From NCBI GenBank assembly GCA_964638435.1, contig CAZXAY010000002.1:15661-47660 (forward strand): a stretch of 32,000 nucleotides of DNA, written 5' to 3'. Shown piece by piece: positions 7,328 through 24,492 of this stretch (position 1 is its first letter; every line of letters starts with the position of its first letter). This stretch comes from an uncultured Candidatus Saccharibacteria bacterium (lineage in GTDB: Bacteria; Patescibacteriota; UBA1384; JAMDBS01; CAZXAY01). A program made the translations under genes and the position numbers. The notes under the pieces were generated by a model. That model did no database searches. It was given only the letters and a program-made list of their open reading frames with translations, and had not been told where the DNA came from.

Positions 7328-7347
7328 TCGATAGTATAGCGCTAGAA

Positions 7348-7387
7348 AAAATCCCACTTCAAGCATTAAGCTAAAGGTGGGATTTTT
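7348..7387 (+). terminator. rho-independent terminator after the RRM gene
   Basis: A 10-bp stem aaaatcccac/gtgggatttt is followed by a T-run (7383-7387). Confidence 0.7.
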
Positions 7388-7437
7388 GTGTTGTTTATCC
7401 TGAGGAAACATATATCACTATTGGTGTCTTATTTGGG

Positions 7438-7466
7438 TTGACAAATATACTACATTAAAGTAAAGT
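7438..7466 (+). promoter_or_regulatory. putative promoter TTGACA-17-TAAAGT for the small ORF
   Basis: -35 at 7438-7443 and -10 at 7461-7466. A gttaaga/tcttaac hairpin (7470-7494) lies in the leader. Confidence 0.45.
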
Positions 7467-7530
7467 ATTGTTAAGAGATTTAACGCATCTTAACAAAAAA
7501 AGACTATTACAGATATAGGGAGGGATTATT

Positions 7531-7800
7531 ATGAGAAAGCATCCGAGAGGTCCTAAAGTCAGGTCAAATAGAAGTACCGTTAGCCCAGCATCAATTATGA
7601 AAGGAGGTGAAGACAACATGTGCGAACGTGGTTTTACACCTGCGATATTGACAATTCATCAACCAGGTGAATGCTTAATCTCGGAATCAACGGATTCTAC
7701 CTCGACATCTGACGATAGTCATCGCGAAATACCCGTTTTGATCCCGAGCACTCAGGAAGAGAGAGTCGGTGGCGACTATGGTCCTTCGGGAAATATATAG
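7531..7800 (+). CDS. small hypothetical protein (89 aa, or 60 aa from an internal start at 7618)
   Basis: SD gggaggg (7518-7524) precedes ATG 7531. A second strong SD aaaggaggtga (7600-7610) precedes the in-frame ATG at 7618. The N-terminal 29 aa are very basic and the rest is acidic and Ser/Thr-rich. G+C is visibly higher than in the ribosomal genes. No recognisable family. Confidence 0.45.
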   Translation: MRKHPRGPKVRSNRSTVSPASIMKGGEDNMCERGFTPAILTIHQPGECLISESTDSTSTSDDSHREIPVLIPSTQEERVGGDYGPSGNI

Positions 7801-7822
7801 AAATATTCGATTCTTACAAAAA

Positions 7823-7865
7823 GCGCCCTGAGCCTTCTGCACAATTGTGCTTAAAGCCCAGGGCG
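7823..7865. terminator. stem-loop between the convergent small ORF and the NTase gene (bidirectional terminator candidate)
   Basis: The outer stem is gcgccctg...cagggcg and encloses the perfect palindrome gcacaattgtgc. Confidence 0.5.
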
Positions 7866-7869
7866 TTCT

Positions 7870-9291
7870 TCATTTGTTTTGTTTATCATAAATTTGATTG
7901 CGTTGGCGGCAATTTTCAAGATATAACGACCACCAATTTTGCAAATCATTAATCAAAACTGGATTGCTTCGAAAATTACGTAGAGAGAACTCTGCAACTT
8001 CTTCATTTTCATCAAGTTTGAGCCAGGTAAAATCTGCATCATGAAGACGATATTCTTCTTTAAATATTCTAAATAACCATTTAAGAAGATTTTTCATCAT
8101 CCAGCGAGCAATACCTTCATCCTCCCCACGTTTTTCTATATTAATGAAAGGATACATTTTATGACAATTTTCTAACAAGTCAAAAATATTACGACACCTT
8201 CCATTGACACTTGAATGATGTTGAAAAACATAATTATACATTTCTATCTGTCTCATCTGATCAAGAAGATAATAAATTTTTTCTAACCTCTCGCAACAAT
8301 CTTCTTTATTAACTACGCGCACCACAAGCAAAAGAAATCTGATGCCCAAGAAGATTTGTAAGTTTTCTTTTTTGAGCAAAAATGAATTTGCCTTACCTTC
8401 ACTTACAAATTTAATCAATCTTTCTAGTGAACGCTCTTTAACAAATCGGTGACCTTTATGGGTAAAAGAATCTTTTCCATAAAGACCGTGGTCTGTTGCA
8501 CACGGCATGATTATTCCACTTTTTACAGATTCTTCGGCTTCTTTAGTATATATCAATCCTTTAGGACCCAATACACACTGATTCATTGTCACATCCCTAC
8601 TCGCTAAGACATGTAAGATATTTTTGTATAACTCTTTACCAGATTGATCTGTTTCGCCAACGAGTTGTAGAAATTTTACGCCAACTTCATCATCCTTTAC
8701 AAGGATATCGAAGTCACGAATTGGAATTTCTGGGGCGATTAAATCACTTTTAAAAAATGCTTTTAATACAAATCGTGCTGGTCCACCTTTATGCAATACC
8801 CCTTTAGCTAGAGGTATTTTTATTTGTAATTTCGATGATTCACAATAGATTAGCCAAATAATGTTTTCATCTCTAGCTATTGTCATCTCAGGGATAGTAT
8901 CTATAATTTGTTGAAGTGAGATAGAAAAAACATTAGATGGTAATATTAATTCTGGTTCAGGAAGACCATCTTTAATAATGTTTACCACATGAATAGCTGT
9001 GCGTGGAATGGAGCCATCTTTAATTTCAATTTCTCTTAGTGAATCCCAAATTAACGAAAAATATGTATTGATAAATTGCTGGACTTTGTAGTCAAAATCA
9101 GTTTTTCTGGATAACCTAACAAGAGCTGCGTAAAAAAGCATTCCCCATTTTTTTGGTTTTGCTTTGTTAACAATATTGATTAGATTATCATATAATTGTG
9201 AAAATTGTCTTAAGGCAACATCAGCTTTATCCGAAAAAATTCTACCACTGCTTACTATATATTTTTCAAGTCCTCTTGGATCTACCACCAT
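7870..9291 (-). CDS. divergent class-II (CCA-adding / poly(A) polymerase family)-like nucleotidyltransferase with an N-terminal extension
   Basis: Motif order is HKGGPARFVL...IRDFDILV (GGxxR...DxD, motif A-like) and then ASRDVTMNQ (RRDFTxNA, motif B-like). FVKERSLERLIKFVSE is a possible degenerate EDPLRxLRAxRF. The start is set at ATG 9291, 5 nt after SD ggaggtga. The ORF-track TTG at 9333 lies inside the promoter -10. Confidence 0.5.
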   Translation of the reverse strand: MVVDPRGLEKYIVSSGRIFSDKADVALRQFSQLYDNLINIVNKAKPKKWGMLFYAALVRLSRKTDFDYKVQQFINTYFSLIWDSLREIEIKDGSIPRTAIHVVNIIKDGLPEPELILPSNVFSISLQQIIDTIPEMTIARDENIIWLIYCESSKLQIKIPLAKGVLHKGGPARFVLKAFFKSDLIAPEIPIRDFDILVKDDEVGVKFLQLVGETDQSGKELYKNILHVLASRDVTMNQCVLGPKGLIYTKEAEESVKSGIIMPCATDHGLYGKDSFTHKGHRFVKERSLERLIKFVSEGKANSFLLKKENLQIFLGIRFLLLVVRVVNKEDCCERLEKIYYLLDQMRQIEMYNYVFQHHSSVNGRCRNIFDLLENCHKMYPFINIEKRGEDEGIARWMMKNLLKWLFRIFKEEYRLHDADFTWLKLDENEEVAEFSLRNFRSNPVLINDLQNWWSLYLENCRQRNQIYDKQNK

Positions 9292-9331
9292 AACTTTCAC
9301 CTCCAAATTGTTCAAGGACAAAGATGACTTC

Positions 9332-9360
9332 AATATAGCAATACACTAAGTGTATGTCAA
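9332..9360 (-). promoter_or_regulatory. consensus promoter (TTGACA-17-TATATT, minus strand) with an embedded palindromic operator-like site
   Basis: On the minus strand the -35 is at 9360-9355 and the -10 at 9337-9332. The spacer and -35 carry the perfect inverted repeat atacac-taa-gtgtat (9341-9355). Confidence 0.55.
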
Positions 9361-9400
9361 GAAAAAAATCCTTTTATTACCTACTGTGGATAAGCATCTA

Positions 9401-9428
9401 TTGACAAAATTATATTTAATGGTAGATT
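9401..9428 (+). promoter_or_regulatory. candidate promoter TTGACA-16-TAGATT for the 263-aa ORF
   Basis: -35 at 9401-9406 and -10 at 9423-9428. An alternative is TTGAAT-17-TATGGT at 9512-9540. Either choice leaves an AT-rich leader that contains an extra SD-like taggaggtg (~9553-9561). Confidence 0.3.
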
Positions 9429-9611
9429 AATATAGATAGGTATATAAGCTTATTGGTTATTTTACGAAAGCCATAGCCTATTTTTATTTGCATATTAAAA
9501 ATTGAATAAATTTGAATATGTGAGCAAAAACAGGTATGGTAAAATTGATAAATAGGAGGTGTTTTCTTTAAAAAAAGGTATTCTGATTCTAAATTTCAAA
9601 GGAGGAATGTT

Positions 9612-10403
9612 ATGGAATCAACCGAGAAAAATCCAATAGGAATTGCCTTCGGACTCAAAAATTCCAGACGTATGTTCTGGATCGAAACCACAGATACTGT
9701 TGAACAAGTCACCAGAGCCCTTATCAAGAGTGTTATCAAGGCAGCACCAGATGCTATAGCCCTTGGGTATGTCGGCGAAAAACCACGTGAGGCAATGCTG
9801 ACTGACCACGTGAAAGATCTGGTTCTCGTGATCGAGGTTGATAAGAAAAAACTCCACGATCTCCGAAGTGAATCCGACAAAAATCTGGAATTGGTAAGCC
9901 TAGTAGACCGCATTAACGCTTTCAAAGAAAGCGGTTGGCAGGCAGAATACTTTACCAGGTCAATGGCTGCAGTCCGCGGCTTTATCAAGACCGATCTTCT
10001 TAATCGTGTGGTTAACCGACGAGCTGTGGTCGATCGTGAAACTAAGATTCATGTCGGCTGGGCCTGGTTCAAAACACTTATCAACCACGCCAGCGAGATT
10101 CGCTGCCTGATCCTCAATGAACCCTTTGGCGCTACAGTGGAAAAAATCATGCCTGCTACTGAGAATAATGTGTCTCAACCGGTTATGGAAGATTCTTTGG
10201 TTTCCACAGAACCACCCATAGTTCAAATCGCATTCATCACCAAAGAAGTGTCTCAGTTGCCAAAACCTATGACCGAGCAAGTTCAGAAATCAGAAACGTT
10301 CGGTACACCACCAGTTAAAGCCAAGAGATCCAGCAAAAGGAAAAAGGTCGTCGAGGCTTCTCAGAATCAGGGCATCATTCAGGAAGTCGAAGTCGGAGCA
10401 TAG
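9612..10403 (+). CDS. hypothetical protein, compositionally foreign (higher G+C), with a basic disordered C-terminal tail
   Basis: SD aaaggagg (9598-9605) precedes ATG 9612. Codon usage (ATC, CTC, GAC, ACC, GTC) is unlike the AAA/ATT/TTA-rich host genes. The C-terminus PPVKAKRSSKRKKVV is Lys/Arg-rich. No family recognised. Confidence 0.6.
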   Translation: MESTEKNPIGIAFGLKNSRRMFWIETTDTVEQVTRALIKSVIKAAPDAIALGYVGEKPREAMLTDHVKDLVLVIEVDKKKLHDLRSESDKNLELVSLVDRINAFKESGWQAEYFTRSMAAVRGFIKTDLLNRVVNRRAVVDRETKIHVGWAWFKTLINHASEIRCLILNEPFGATVEKIMPATENNVSQPVMEDSLVSTEPPIVQIAFITKEVSQLPKPMTEQVQKSETFGTPPVKAKRSSKRKKVVEASQNQGIIQEVEVGA

Positions 10404-10428
10404 TCAGAATCCAAGCACCGAACATTCC

Positions 10429-10457
10429 GCCGTAGTTTTATAACTGCGGCTTTTTTA
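10429..10457 (+). terminator. rho-independent terminator after the 263-aa ORF
   Basis: gccgtagtt-ttat-aactgcggc (one G-U pair) is followed by tttttt (10451-10456). Confidence 0.7.
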
Positions 10458-10466
10458 TTAATAGTA

Positions 10467-10495
10467 TTGACAAGATAATAACTATTTGATAAACT
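10467..10495 (+). promoter_or_regulatory. promoter TTGACA-17-TAAACT re-starting the ribosomal operon at rplC
   Basis: -35 at 10467-10472 and -10 at 10490-10495. A ~110-nt leader carrying direct repeats tttagac x2 and acgatt x2 precedes rplC. Confidence 0.5.
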
Positions 10496-10609
10496 TAAAT
10501 TAGAAATCTTTAGACAATTTACGATTTCATGATAAGCCTAAAAAACGATTCACATAAGGTGGATTGGTTTTAGACTATATTTAATTGTAATGTAAATTTA
10601 GGACAAATT

Positions 10610-18627: not shown

Positions 18628-18642
18628 TATTAATTGTTCTAA

Positions 18643-18841
18643 GGGTCTGTCGCCGAATGTGCTTTGGGAATGAAAATTAATCACATTTGAGCGAAAACTT
18701 TAGTAGATGACGATGCCTATCAGGTGATAAGCAGAGGAATATAATGAAGTTTGTCCTTCGACAGGCTCAGGATGGTGAGCAAAGTCGAACCACAGCCAAA
18801 TGTGGTAATTTTCAGCCAAAATGATGTTTGGCGACAAACCC
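18643..18841 (+). mobile_element. MITE copy 1 (~199 bp) between rplR and rpsE, flanked by the 5-bp direct duplication tctaa
   Basis: The ends are gggtctgtcgcc...ggcgacaaaccc. The arms stay complementary for ~50 nt. tctaa occurs at 18638-18642 and again at 18842-18846. By eye it is ~90% identical to the copies at 19855 and 24130. Confidence 0.85.
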
Positions 18842-18854
18842 TCTAAAGGATATT

Positions 18855-19457
18855 ATGGAAAAAGAAAAAAAAGAATTTGAAGAAAGAGTAATAGAGATTA
18901 GCCGTGTTTCTCGTACCGTAAAAGGTGGGAGAAGGCTTAGATTCCGAGCACTTGTTGCTATTGGTAACCTAAATGGTAAAATTGGTATTGGTATTGGTAA
19001 AGCAAATGAGGTTGCCCAAGCTGTTCAAAAAGCTGTTAATAGAGCAAAAAAGAATATGATTAGTGTTACTATTACTAATAACACTATCCTTCATGAAGTA
19101 AAAATGCATTTTGGTGGTGCATATATATTTTTAAAGCCTGCTGCACCAGGAACATCCGTAATCGCTGGTAGTACAATTAGAACAGTTATTGAGCTTGCAG
19201 GTATAAAGAATATTCTTAGTAAAGCTCATGGATCATCAAATAAAATTAATAACGTAATGGCTACATTTCTCGCATTAGACAGCTTATCAAATAGAAGTGT
19301 TGGCCAAGACAAATATATTTCTAAATTGAAAGATAAAGCTGATTCTGATGAAAATATCGATAGTTCTTTAACAAAATCTGAATCAGGTGAAAATAAAAAA
19401 TCAACAAAATCTAATATATCTAAGGTAAAAAATGAAACTCAACGAGCTAAAAAATAA
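18855..19457 (+). CDS. rpsE: 30S ribosomal protein S5 (acidic/Lys-rich C-terminal extension)
   Basis: The start is set at [27 protein letters not shown] with SD aaagga (18845-18850). The ORF-track TTG at 18828 lies inside the MITE and is rejected. Confidence 0.93.
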
Positions 19458-19845: not shown

Positions 19846-19854
19846 AACTTAATA

Positions 19855-20055
19855 GGGTCTGTCGCCGAATGTGCTTTGGGAATGAAAATTAATCATATTC
19901 GAGCGAAAACTTTAGTAAGCTACGATGCCTATCAGGTATGATAAGCAGAGAAGATTAATAAAGTTTGTCCTTCGACAGGCTCAGGATGGTGAGCAAAGTC
20001 GAACCACAGCCGAATATGGTAATTTTCAGCCAAAATGATGTTTGGCGACAGTCCC
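19855..20055 (+). mobile_element. MITE copy 2 (~201 bp) between rplO and secY, flanked by the 5-bp duplication taata
   Basis: The ends are gggtctgtcgcc...ggcgacagtccc. taata occurs at 19850-19854 and at 20056-20060. Confidence 0.85.
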
Positions 20056-20073
20056 TAATAGTTTAAGGATCAA

Positions 20074-21417: not shown

Positions 21418-22461
21418 ATGTCAAAATTACAACAAAACAAAAGTTTATTTAATTTAATGATTGTAGTTTTGGGAATAATAGCCATTGGTATATTATTTAC
21501 CACCAATGGAAGCAAACTCACAACAAAAACAACATCTAATTCTGACGACATCAGTCAAAATAATCAAAATCAAGGTGGCGGTGATCTAGATACTAAAAAA
21601 CTTGTTGAAACCATACCTACCCAAAAAATTTTATACAGTATAATAAATGATAAATATACTGATATTTATTCCTATGATTTTGTGACTAATAAACCATCAA
21701 AAGTTTTTACAGACAAAGATGAAGTTGATAAAATTAAAACTATATCATCTATAACAAATGAAGGTAAAGTGCTAGCGTTAATGAGCCAACCTGGACAAGA
21801 ATTTTCTGGCAAACTATATTTAATTAGAACCGATGGATCTGGTAAAAAAGAATTATTAATAGATGATTTTGCTAGTCCACAACCTGCTCAAATATCTCCA
21901 GATGGTAAAAAACTCTGTTATATATTGTTCTCTAATTCTGAGAAAGATTTTGGTTTTAAATTAATTGAGGCTGATAGTGATGGCTCTAACAAAAAACAAC
22001 TTACCACTGATACAACCAATATATCTCAACTAGGCTGGTCCCCTGATTCTAATAGTTTTGTATACATCAAAAGCAATAATAATGATATGTATAAAATTAA
22101 TATCACTACCTTAAAAGAAGAAAAAATTACGACTTTTAATGATGATCAATTACAAAGCTTTTCATGGAGTGAAATTGGAATTATTATTAGTAAATATCAA
22201 AAAGGAAATAATAATTTTAATAATGCCGAAATTTTTACTATTAATCTAACCGATAATTCTACTAAAAAAATTACTAGCAATTCACTTTACGATAATTTTG
22301 CTTATTACGATTCATTGGGTAATTTAGTATATTTGAGTCTTGATTATGATATTAAAGATGCCAATATACTTTATAAACAAGGGAAAATTCAACTATTATC
22401 CACAAATGGGATTACCAAAGAAGTTACTAACGCTAATCAAATATTAGGCTGGAAAAATTAA
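21418..22461 (+). CDS. membrane-anchored TolB-like (PD40 beta-propeller repeat) protein
   Basis: N-terminal TM LFNLMIVVLGIIAIGILFTT. Repeated ISPDGKKLCY and WSPDSNSFVY motifs are typical of PD40/WD40-like propeller blades. Confidence 0.55.
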   Translation: MSKLQQNKSLFNLMIVVLGIIAIGILFTTNGSKLTTKTTSNSDDISQNNQNQGGGDLDTKKLVETIPTQKILYSIINDKYTDIYSYDFVTNKPSKVFTDKDEVDKIKTISSITNEGKVLALMSQPGQEFSGKLYLIRTDGSGKKELLIDDFASPQPAQISPDGKKLCYILFSNSEKDFGFKLIEADSDGSNKKQLTTDTTNISQLGWSPDSNSFVYIKSNNNDMYKINITTLKEEKITTFNDDQLQSFSWSEIGIIISKYQKGNNNFNNAEIFTINLTDNSTKKITSNSLYDNFAYYDSLGNLVYLSLDYDIKDANILYKQGKIQLLSTNGITKEVTNANQILGWKN

Positions 22462-24123: not shown

Positions 24124-24129
24124 TTATTA

Positions 24130-24331
24130 GGGTGCTGTCGCTGAATGTGCTTTTGAGATTAAAATTAGCCACATTCGAGCGAAAACTTTAGTAGATGACG
24201 ATGCCTATCAGGTATGATAAGCGGAGGAGACTAATAAAGTTTGTCCTTCGACAGGCTCAGGATGGTGAGCAAAGTCGAACCACAGGCAAATGTGGTAATT
24301 TTTAGCCAAAATGACGTTTGGCGACAGCACC
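24130..24331 (+). mobile_element. MITE copy 3 (~202 bp) between infA and rpmJ, flanked by atta (4 bp clear, 5th position ambiguous)
   Basis: The ends gggtgctgtcgc...gcgacagcacc carry paired changes that keep the terminal stem. atta occurs at 24126-24129 and at 24332-24335. Confidence 0.8.
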
Positions 24332-24345
24332 ATTAGAAAGTATTT

Positions 24346-24492
24346 ATGAATGTGGTAACACCGTCAGTTAAAAAAAGATGTGATAAATGTAAAATAATCA
24401 GAAGAAGTAAAAAAGGTAAAAGTTTTCATACTAAAAAACCTCGACTTTTTGTAAGATGCGAAAATAGACGACACAACCAAAGTCAAGGATAA
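24346..24492 (+). CDS. rpmJ: 50S ribosomal protein L36 (extended, 48 aa); not in the ORF track
   Basis: Hand translation: MNVVTPSVKKRCDKCKIIRRSKKGKSFHTKKPRLFVRCENRRHNQSQG. It has the L36 signature SVKK.C.KCK.IRR...V.CEN.RH.Q.QG with an ~11-aa internal insertion. Confidence 0.85.
   Translation: MNVVTPSVKKRCDKCKIIRRSKKGKSFHTKKPRLFVRCENRRHNQSQG

Follow-up and report, generated by a model that had tools for sequence, protein, structure and literature searches.

What is the repeated, non-coding segment that interrupts the short spacers of a ribosomal-protein operon in this genome, and what kind of enzyme could have moved it there? The window (the whole 32-kb stretch of DNA analysed here) carries the ribosomal-protein super-operon of a member of the Patescibacteria (CPR), whose nearest named relatives are Berkelbacteria and whose SecY is at most 63% identical to that of any GTDB species representative. 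The initial annotation had placed a miniature element (MITE) at 19850-20060, with inverted-repeat termini and 5-bp A/T-rich duplications. We found this to be one of three such copies, and consider it highly probable that they represent a non-autonomous MITE of ~200 bp that inserted three times in the spc/alpha operon, was moved in trans, and is co-transcribed with the operon and folds.

Three copies of a non-coding element in the spc/alpha operon

A repeat search and nhmmer recovered exactly three full copies of the element in the window, all on the + strand and 88-93% identical to one another in pairwise comparisons. Copy 1 (18643-18841, 199 bp; 18638-18846 with its TCTAA/TCTAA duplications) lies in the spacer between the genes for L18 and S5, copy 2 (19855-20055, 201 bp; TAATA/TAATA) in the spacer between those for L15 and SecY, and copy 3 (24131-24331, 201 bp; 24126-24336 with its ATTAG/ATTAG duplications) in the spacer between infA and the L36 gene. 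The flanking 5-bp direct repeats are perfect and A/T-rich in all three copies, in agreement with the initial annotation; by our own estimate, a 5-bp match arises by chance with a probability of ~0.3^5 in A/T-rich DNA, and a match in three of three copies with ~1e-7. The span originally proposed proved to be copy 2 from duplication to duplication (left TAATA at 19850-19854, right TAATA at 20056-20060, placed by flank comparison and a BLAST breakpoint), and the terminal sequence quoted for it, GGGTCTGTCGCCGAATGTGCTTTGGGAATGAAAATTAAT, is located at 19855-19893.

The terminal inverted repeats (TIRs) are ~47 bp long and imperfect, with ~37 identical positions in the first ~47 nt of the TIR alignment. 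Copy 2 begins with the left TIR, which also forms the 5' arm of the predicted closing stem (19855-19904, + strand; alignment columns 1-50), and continues with an internal hairpin A (19907-19966, + strand; columns 53-112), the most variable part of the element, a 38-nt core, CCTTCGACAGGCTCAGGATGGTGAGCAAAGTCGAACCA (19969-20006, + strand), inside a 49-nt invariant run (columns 107-155), and the right TIR, which forms the 3' arm of the closing stem (20009-20055, + strand). The tips of copy 3 read GGTGCTG..CAGCACC, a complementary change at both ends. The copies have a G+C content of 43-44% versus ~32% for the window. No open frame is present in the element, which has stops in all six frames, and a protein search with its six-frame translation returned no match. 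General features of a MITE are present, i.e., 199-201 bp of non-coding DNA, TIRs, target duplications with corresponding empty sites, and three copies within 32 kb.

Could the three copies be a chance repeat or an artefact of assembly? Assemblers do break in this repeat, as L006, a Logan contig (SRR446575) obtained independently from the same genome, begins inside the right end of copy 2 (its positions 1-34). The same contig, however, reproduces the right junction and so confirms it, and the copies are diverged from one another, each with its own duplication and unique flanks. Further, the first 20 nt of copy 2 occur again at 18643 (no mismatches) and 24131 (three mismatches), while none is expected by chance from shuffled sequences. 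An artefact can therefore practically be dismissed.

Empty sites in related genomes

The copies are tightly fitted between genes: in all three, 7-15 nt separate the upstream stop codon from the element, and 13-18 nt separate the end of the element from the next start codon. Copy 2 lies 9 nt past the L15 stop and 18 nt ahead of the SecY ATG with the AAGGA ribosome-binding site intact, and in copy 1 the AAGGA site is rebuilt by the duplication, such that the duplicated pentamer either leaves or restores this signal. The true start of S5 is the ATG at 18855; a mechanical ORF listing, which takes the first start after a stop, picks a TTG inside copy 1.

We searched for the corresponding sites in relatives of the host (L007, L008, L159, L160, and L161-163), and found that five relatives, with SecY proteins 94, 86, 83, 78, and 71% identical to that of the window, have, at those of the three sites that are included in their contigs, spacers of 1-37 bp. 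When the window is aligned by BLASTN with L007, the closest of these relatives (81% identity in nucleotides), the alignment is interrupted at 18629|18845 and 19852|20057, and position 2785 of L007 aligns to both sides of copy 2. At the L15-SecY site, L007 reads ..AAATAgtttt.., with a single AAATA where the window has TAATA twice; at the L18-S5 site, it reads ..TCAAAgga.. (..agaTCAAAggatattATG), with a single TCAAA where the window has TCTAA twice. The infA-L36 spacer of L008 is 13 nt. Given these empty sites and the BLAST breaks at the borders of copies 1 and 2, the copies are true insertions with 5-bp target duplications. The element is therefore a MITE that inserted after the species diverged from these relatives, on three separate occasions, into short A/T-rich spacers of a Berkelbacteria-like Patescibacteria genome that had already split from relatives of 81% identity. 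The copies differ from one another by 7-12%, less than the 19% divergence between the host and L007.

These observations confirm the element as a MITE, which is of an ordinary kind but is found in an unusual host and at an unusual location. We found no description of MITEs in CPR/Patescibacteria in the literature searched. The genomes of these bacteria are small and compact. Recent and repeated insertions in the spacers of the most conserved operon imply that a transposase has been active in the lineage, and spacers of 15-40 bp evidently tolerate hairpins of 200 bp. Assemblers and annotators should expect such elements, as illustrated by the break of the L006 contig and by the misplaced start of S5.

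Comparison of the ends with the Tn3 family and IS26

In the mechanism that we propose, a putative DDE-type transposase would act in trans on the ~47-bp inverted ends (tip consensus GGGNCTGTCGCCGAAT), the ends would be joined to target cuts with a 5-bp stagger, and gap repair at the staggered cuts would produce the 5-bp duplications. To our knowledge, the Tn3 family is the only well-known family that combines 5-bp duplications, G-rich tips, and inverted repeats (IRs) of at least 38 bp. The element may thus be a TIME, i.e., a Tn3-derived miniature mobilised by a Tn3-type TnpA via replicative (cointegrate) transposition, a reading that we regard as possible though tentative. The 5-bp A/T-rich duplications, which are also made by Tn21 on R100 (TATTA) and by TIMEs (PMC4133298), the long inverted ends, and the G-rich tip all argue for it.

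For a direct comparison, we assembled a panel of four verified Tn3-family IRs, namely that of Tn3 (found exactly in at least 5000 plasmids), both IRs of Tn21 (read from plasmid R100 together with the TATTA duplication), and that of Tn4430 (found exactly in at least 178 Bacillus plasmids), along with four further IRs used as soft controls only. The IR of IS26, GGCACTGTTGCAAA, read from plasmid NTP16, served as an out-family control. Tips were compared by anchored, ungapped alignment against 5000 shuffles that kept the GG.

In the outer 12 nt, the left end of copy 2 matches Tn3 at 10 of 12 positions (p ~4e-4), the copy 1 and copy 2 right ends match at nine, and both ends of copy 3 at eight, with p values from 4e-4 to 0.03 across the ends. 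The initial annotation had counted 11 of 12; the correct figure is 10 of the 11 letters as it wrote them, or 10/12 when anchored. It had also pointed to a GGAAyGAAAA block further in, which copies 1 and 2 have at their left ends; no right end has it, and neither does copy 3. Over the full 38 nt, identity to Tn3 is 15-16/38 (p ~0.1), which is not above shuffles, and the Tn21 IRs match at 5-8/12 at the tip, which is not significant, with no signal over the whole IR. Relative to shuffled controls, the proposed similarity therefore holds for the outermost 12 nt of Tn3 and fails for the whole IRs of both Tn3 and Tn21. A gapped alignment with Tn4430, best at the right ends, gave p values of 0.004-0.03, which are uncorrected for 30 comparisons and were reached with three gaps totalling 8 nt. 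The tip of IS26 (GGnACTGTyGC) matches the element at 9/12 (p 0.004), about as well as that of Tn3. IS26 is otherwise different from the element, since duplications in the IS6 family are 8 bp and the IRs 14 bp long, and it thus serves as a control on how far the tip resemblance can be trusted.

Further in, the ends depart from the Tn3 family. The inner (A)CGNTAAG motif, which is present in all four verified Tn3-family IRs (Tn3, both of Tn21, and Tn4430), is absent from all six MITE ends. The tips in the window are GGGT, GGGA, and GGTG, not GGGG; when eight ends from the wider family described below are compared, position 4, one of the positions that contribute to the agreement with Tn3, can be T, G, or A; and the spacing to the A-run is too long by 7-10 nt. 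The distribution of the copies is also difficult to reconcile with a Tn3-type process. Members of the Tn3 family transpose replicatively and typically, though not by strict definition, show target immunity, with one copy per replicon as the usual outcome, whereas here three copies in the same orientation lie inside 5.7 kb with the gene order of the operon unchanged, which is hard to explain with target immunity and intramolecular replicative transposition. Most TIMEs are indeed single-copy, which has been linked to the target immunity of the Tn3 family (PMC4133298), with TIME-COMPs and three TIME244 copies on one plasmid as exceptions (PMC13367494).

A Tn3-family TnpA flanked by the same IRs, as the initial annotation suggested looking for, was not found in the 32-kb window, and neither was any other transposase. 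Searches for a longer element with the same ends found none in the window, the GTDB representatives, or IMG/VR; these scans were limited to patterns and are weak evidence of absence. The gapped end pattern CTGTCGCC..TGAAAATTA had 70 genome matches, all chance-like and none with an inverted partner, and the end patterns in viral contigs gave only chance matches in high-GC phages.

Altogether, the Tn3/TIME interpretation is partly supported, as a weak resemblance: the 5-bp A/T-rich duplication, the long ends, and the G-rich tip fit, whereas whole-IR similarity to Tn3 and Tn21 does not exceed that of shuffles, and the inner TAAG and the GGGG tip are lacking. Given these departures and the missing transposase, the equally good match to the IS26 tip, and the clustering of the copies, membership among the TIMEs is neither demonstrated nor refuted. 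Based on the three fitting features, a Tn3-like enzyme may still be the best guess among known families for moving the element, with a likelihood of roughly one in three in our judgement, and a lineage-specific or other transposase family that makes 5-bp duplications is at least as likely. If the ends are Tn3-like, TIMEs would be known from hosts far outside the Proteobacteria.

Related ends in other CPR genomes

To look beyond the window, we scanned the JGI metagenomes with internal family-specific patterns, and likewise the GTDB species representatives and IMG/VR, and found no further copies (0 matches). Searched with BLASTN against plasmids and phages, the element matched only through pieces of its core of 21-24 nt. 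A profile of the element run with nhmmer against 80 CPR secY loci found no full copies, with a weak match that led to a relative in a CPR MAG (L077 283-442, JAZDFM01). This relative is a 160-bp near-perfect palindrome upstream of the next gene, with the ends GGGACTGTCGCCGAATGC and GGGGCTGTCGCCGAATGC. In another CPR MAG (L052 7609-7645, JAHJXD01), secY is followed, at a distance of 9 nt, by a 37-bp hairpin, GGAACTGTCGCCGAAT-ATGGC-ATTCGGTCACAGTCCC. The terminal ~16 nt, GGGNCTGTCGCCGAAT, are common to the window MITE and to both of these elements, while the interiors differ, and GGGG occurs at one of the four ends of the two. The shared ends thus define a family that reaches across CPR lineages whose SecY proteins are only ~50% identical. 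No recognisable target duplication is present at the L077 or L052 elements.

Predicted fold and base-pair changes

Each copy is predicted to fold as a three-way junction of ~-80 kcal/mol (z-score -6.4), consisting of a closing stem of ~43 bp made by the ends, hairpin A, and a core hairpin. Compensatory double changes occur in 6 of 77 pairs, a count reached by only 2 of 500 shuffles, in a sample of three sequences. Four fall among the 43 pairs of the closing stem, including the change from GGGT..ACCC to GGTG..CACC at the tips of copy 3, and two among the 21 pairs of hairpin A, which is outside the TIRs. The + strand is more stable than its complement by 7-10 kcal/mol in all three copies. Among the non-Watson-Crick cells of the stems, G.U outnumbers A.C by 15 to 3; counted by column, the numbers are 9 vs 3 (one-sided p ~0.07 by our binomial estimate), a weak asymmetry. 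In the right arm, GTTT in the window corresponds to ATTC in L077 and L052; with these two transitions, pairing is preserved on the + strand alone.

The compensatory changes and the excess of G.U pairs on the + strand, in these three sequences, suggest that the single-stranded fold matters. Such a constraint, for which the data are suggestive and not conclusive, could act on the operon mRNA or on a DNA fold-back intermediate, and the compensatory changes in the ends could also have come from conversion between fold-back arms instead of selection. As all copies are in the sense of the operon and no intrinsic terminator was found 3' of the stem, co-transcription is expected, and the RNA is predicted to fold as a three-way junction upstream of the next ribosome-binding site.

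The element does not vary evenly along its length. Variable columns number 11 of 50 in the left end, 12 of 60 in hairpin A, 8 of 47 in the right end, and 0 of 41 in the core, and the central run of 49 nt is invariant in all three copies (p=0.003 by permutation) while ~20% of the TIR columns vary. We infer that the invariant central hairpin, and not the ends, is under the strongest constraint. The most interesting residue of this analysis is that conservation is higher in the interior than in the ends, which are the part required for movement.

The question then is whether the element is primarily a functional RNA, such as a site for RNase III processing, a stability element, or a hairpin that binds protein in the ribosomal-protein mRNA, that spread as a mobile cassette and was selected by the host, which would be compatible with its being a MITE. 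This would account for the position of all copies in the sense direction just ahead of ribosome-binding sites, the six compensatory pairs with two outside the TIRs, the preference of G.U pairs for the + strand, and a centre that stays invariant while the ends decay and is identical across phyla. Close relatives, however, do without the element at the same sites. The orientation is also uninformative, since + strand genes make up nearly all of the genes in the window, and a common orientation of three copies is expected by chance one time in four. Moreover, Rfam covariance models found nothing in the window at gathering or permissive thresholds (best E-value 0.21, to a miRNA model). We therefore consider a primary role as RNA rather unlikely, and retain the MITE moved in trans as the preferred explanation.

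The invariant centre and a cross-phylum hairpin module

The core (18755-18792 in copy 1, 19969-20006 in copy 2, and 24245-24282 in copy 3) was also found outside the CPR. The exact 38-mer CCTTCGACAGGCTCAGGATGGTGAGCAAAGTCGAACCA is present, with unrelated flanks, in MAGs of Zixibacteria (three contigs), Planctomycetales, and Elusimicrobiales. It consists of two inverted copies, back to back, of a hairpin module that occurs across phyla, with a conserved centre of 17 nt, CCTTCGACA(G/A)GCTCAGG, and closing stems that are variable and often complementary. The left 20-mer of the core has at least 120 loci in the GTDB representatives, in addition to 51 viral contigs and plasmids, and the taxa among the matches listed include Chloroflexota, Alphaproteobacteria, Bacteroidota, Eremiobacterota, Acidobacteriota, Nitrospirota, and CPR (module loci collected as L001-L005, L166-L285, and L292-L342).

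In 191 distinct instances of the module, C-R-T comes before the conserved centre. At position -2, 53% of them have A and 41% have G, and the G pairs only as G.U on the strand of the centre. Complementarity of the flanking 4-7 positions is more frequent than in shuffled controls. The module takes the form of solo hairpins, inverted pairs, and tandem arrays in many phyla, phages, and plasmids; in Alphaproteobacteria, for example, two inverted module hairpins bracket 30-50 bp, and tandem arrays are also found. No Rfam family was assigned to the core module in 17 other loci, no consistent neighbour gene was found across 176 loci, and a literature search for the motif as DNA, RNA, or peptide text returned nothing relevant.

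The Methylobacterium nodulans plasmid pMNOD02 (L164) carries 24 nt of the module, TGTCCTTCGACAGGCTCAGGATG.., at positions 1501-1524. The DNA in which they lie has no annotation, and its translation, made by eye, resembles a pseudogene of an IS3-type transposase, a hint that a half-module may insert, or stay behind, by itself.

In a Zixibacteria MAG, the core module adjoins REP-like palindromes of the form GTAG..CTAC, which raises the possibility that the element is a REP/REPIN- or IS200/IS605-type palindrome moved as single-stranded DNA by a Y1 (HUH) transposase. Its hairpin-rich, nearly palindromic layout and the REP-like look of the 37-bp L052 hairpin are in line with this, as REP/REPIN elements are short palindromic intergenic repeats, and the core module resembles them in behaving as a dispersed hairpin whose centre is conserved. 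However, such elements make no target duplications and insert beside a fixed tetra- or pentanucleotide, whereas three different 5-bp duplications are present here. GTAG is absent from the tips, and the lack of duplications, the GTAG motif, and the dependence on RAYT that characterise REP/REPIN elements are not features of the window MITE. We consider this origin very improbable.

More speculatively, and with a likelihood that we judge to be low, the invariant centre could be an undescribed structured module that has its own function across phyla, with the CPR MITE as one vehicle that brings it into highly expressed operons. Its putative role might be that of a binding site for some widespread machinery, or of a recognition site for a mobilisation system. 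The embedded hairpin, which is extremely widespread and without an Rfam family, may be the more valuable lead.

Comparison with known miniature elements

TIMEs are non-coding elements of 209-288 bp whose inverted ends are long and whose insertion in A/T-rich targets creates duplications of 5 bp (sometimes 6 bp), and they are predicted to form long RNA stem-loops (PMC4133298; PMC13367494). The window MITE is similar to them in its small size, lack of coding capacity, long inverted ends, 5-bp A/T-rich duplications, and predicted long RNA stem, the last of which is a further point of agreement with the TIME reading (PMC4133298). The two differ in that the ends of TIMEs are near-identical to those of a known Tn3-family transposon (e.g., Tn5563a), with a cognate TnpA in the host and mostly a single copy, whereas the window MITE has only the outer ~12 nt Tn3-like, lacks the inner TAAG, and is present in three copies within 5.7 kb.

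With regard to a possible effect on expression, the closest parallels are the Correia/NEMIS elements of Neisseria and the ERIC elements of enterobacteria, which are MITEs co-transcribed with their flanking genes and for which an effect on RNA has been experimentally shown. By analogy, the window MITE may resemble both of these, which change how mRNA is processed and how stable it is. They share with it an intergenic location near gene starts, co-orientation or co-transcription, and long hairpins, with the RNA effect of the window MITE only inferred, and they differ from it in their ends, their duplications (TA for Correia), and their hosts. ERIC elements are also cited in connection with TIMEs (PMC4133298).

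Other features of the window

Apart from the MITE copies, the window contains a stretch of ~3 kb (7330-10600) between the gene for an RRM protein and that for L3, where the gap in L161 is only 267 bp. It carries a minus-strand ORF of 487 aa, together with ORFs of 89 and 263 aa, and its G+C skew is reversed. We searched this insert for a transposase, and found no Pfam match for the 487-aa ORF, in which a GGPARF..DFDILV stretch is nucleotidyltransferase-like by eye only.

Between secY and adk in the spc operon is a gene of 347 aa (21418-22461), an unusual operon resident that is kept in all relatives examined. It has no Pfam match in the window, and mostly weak or faint matches to Tricorn_N/Tricorn_2nd in the precomputed annotation of the relatives. 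Lastly, bacterial L36 is typically ~37-38 aa, whereas the L36 (rpmJ, 24346-24492) encoded downstream of copy 3 is 48 aa, as is that of L008.
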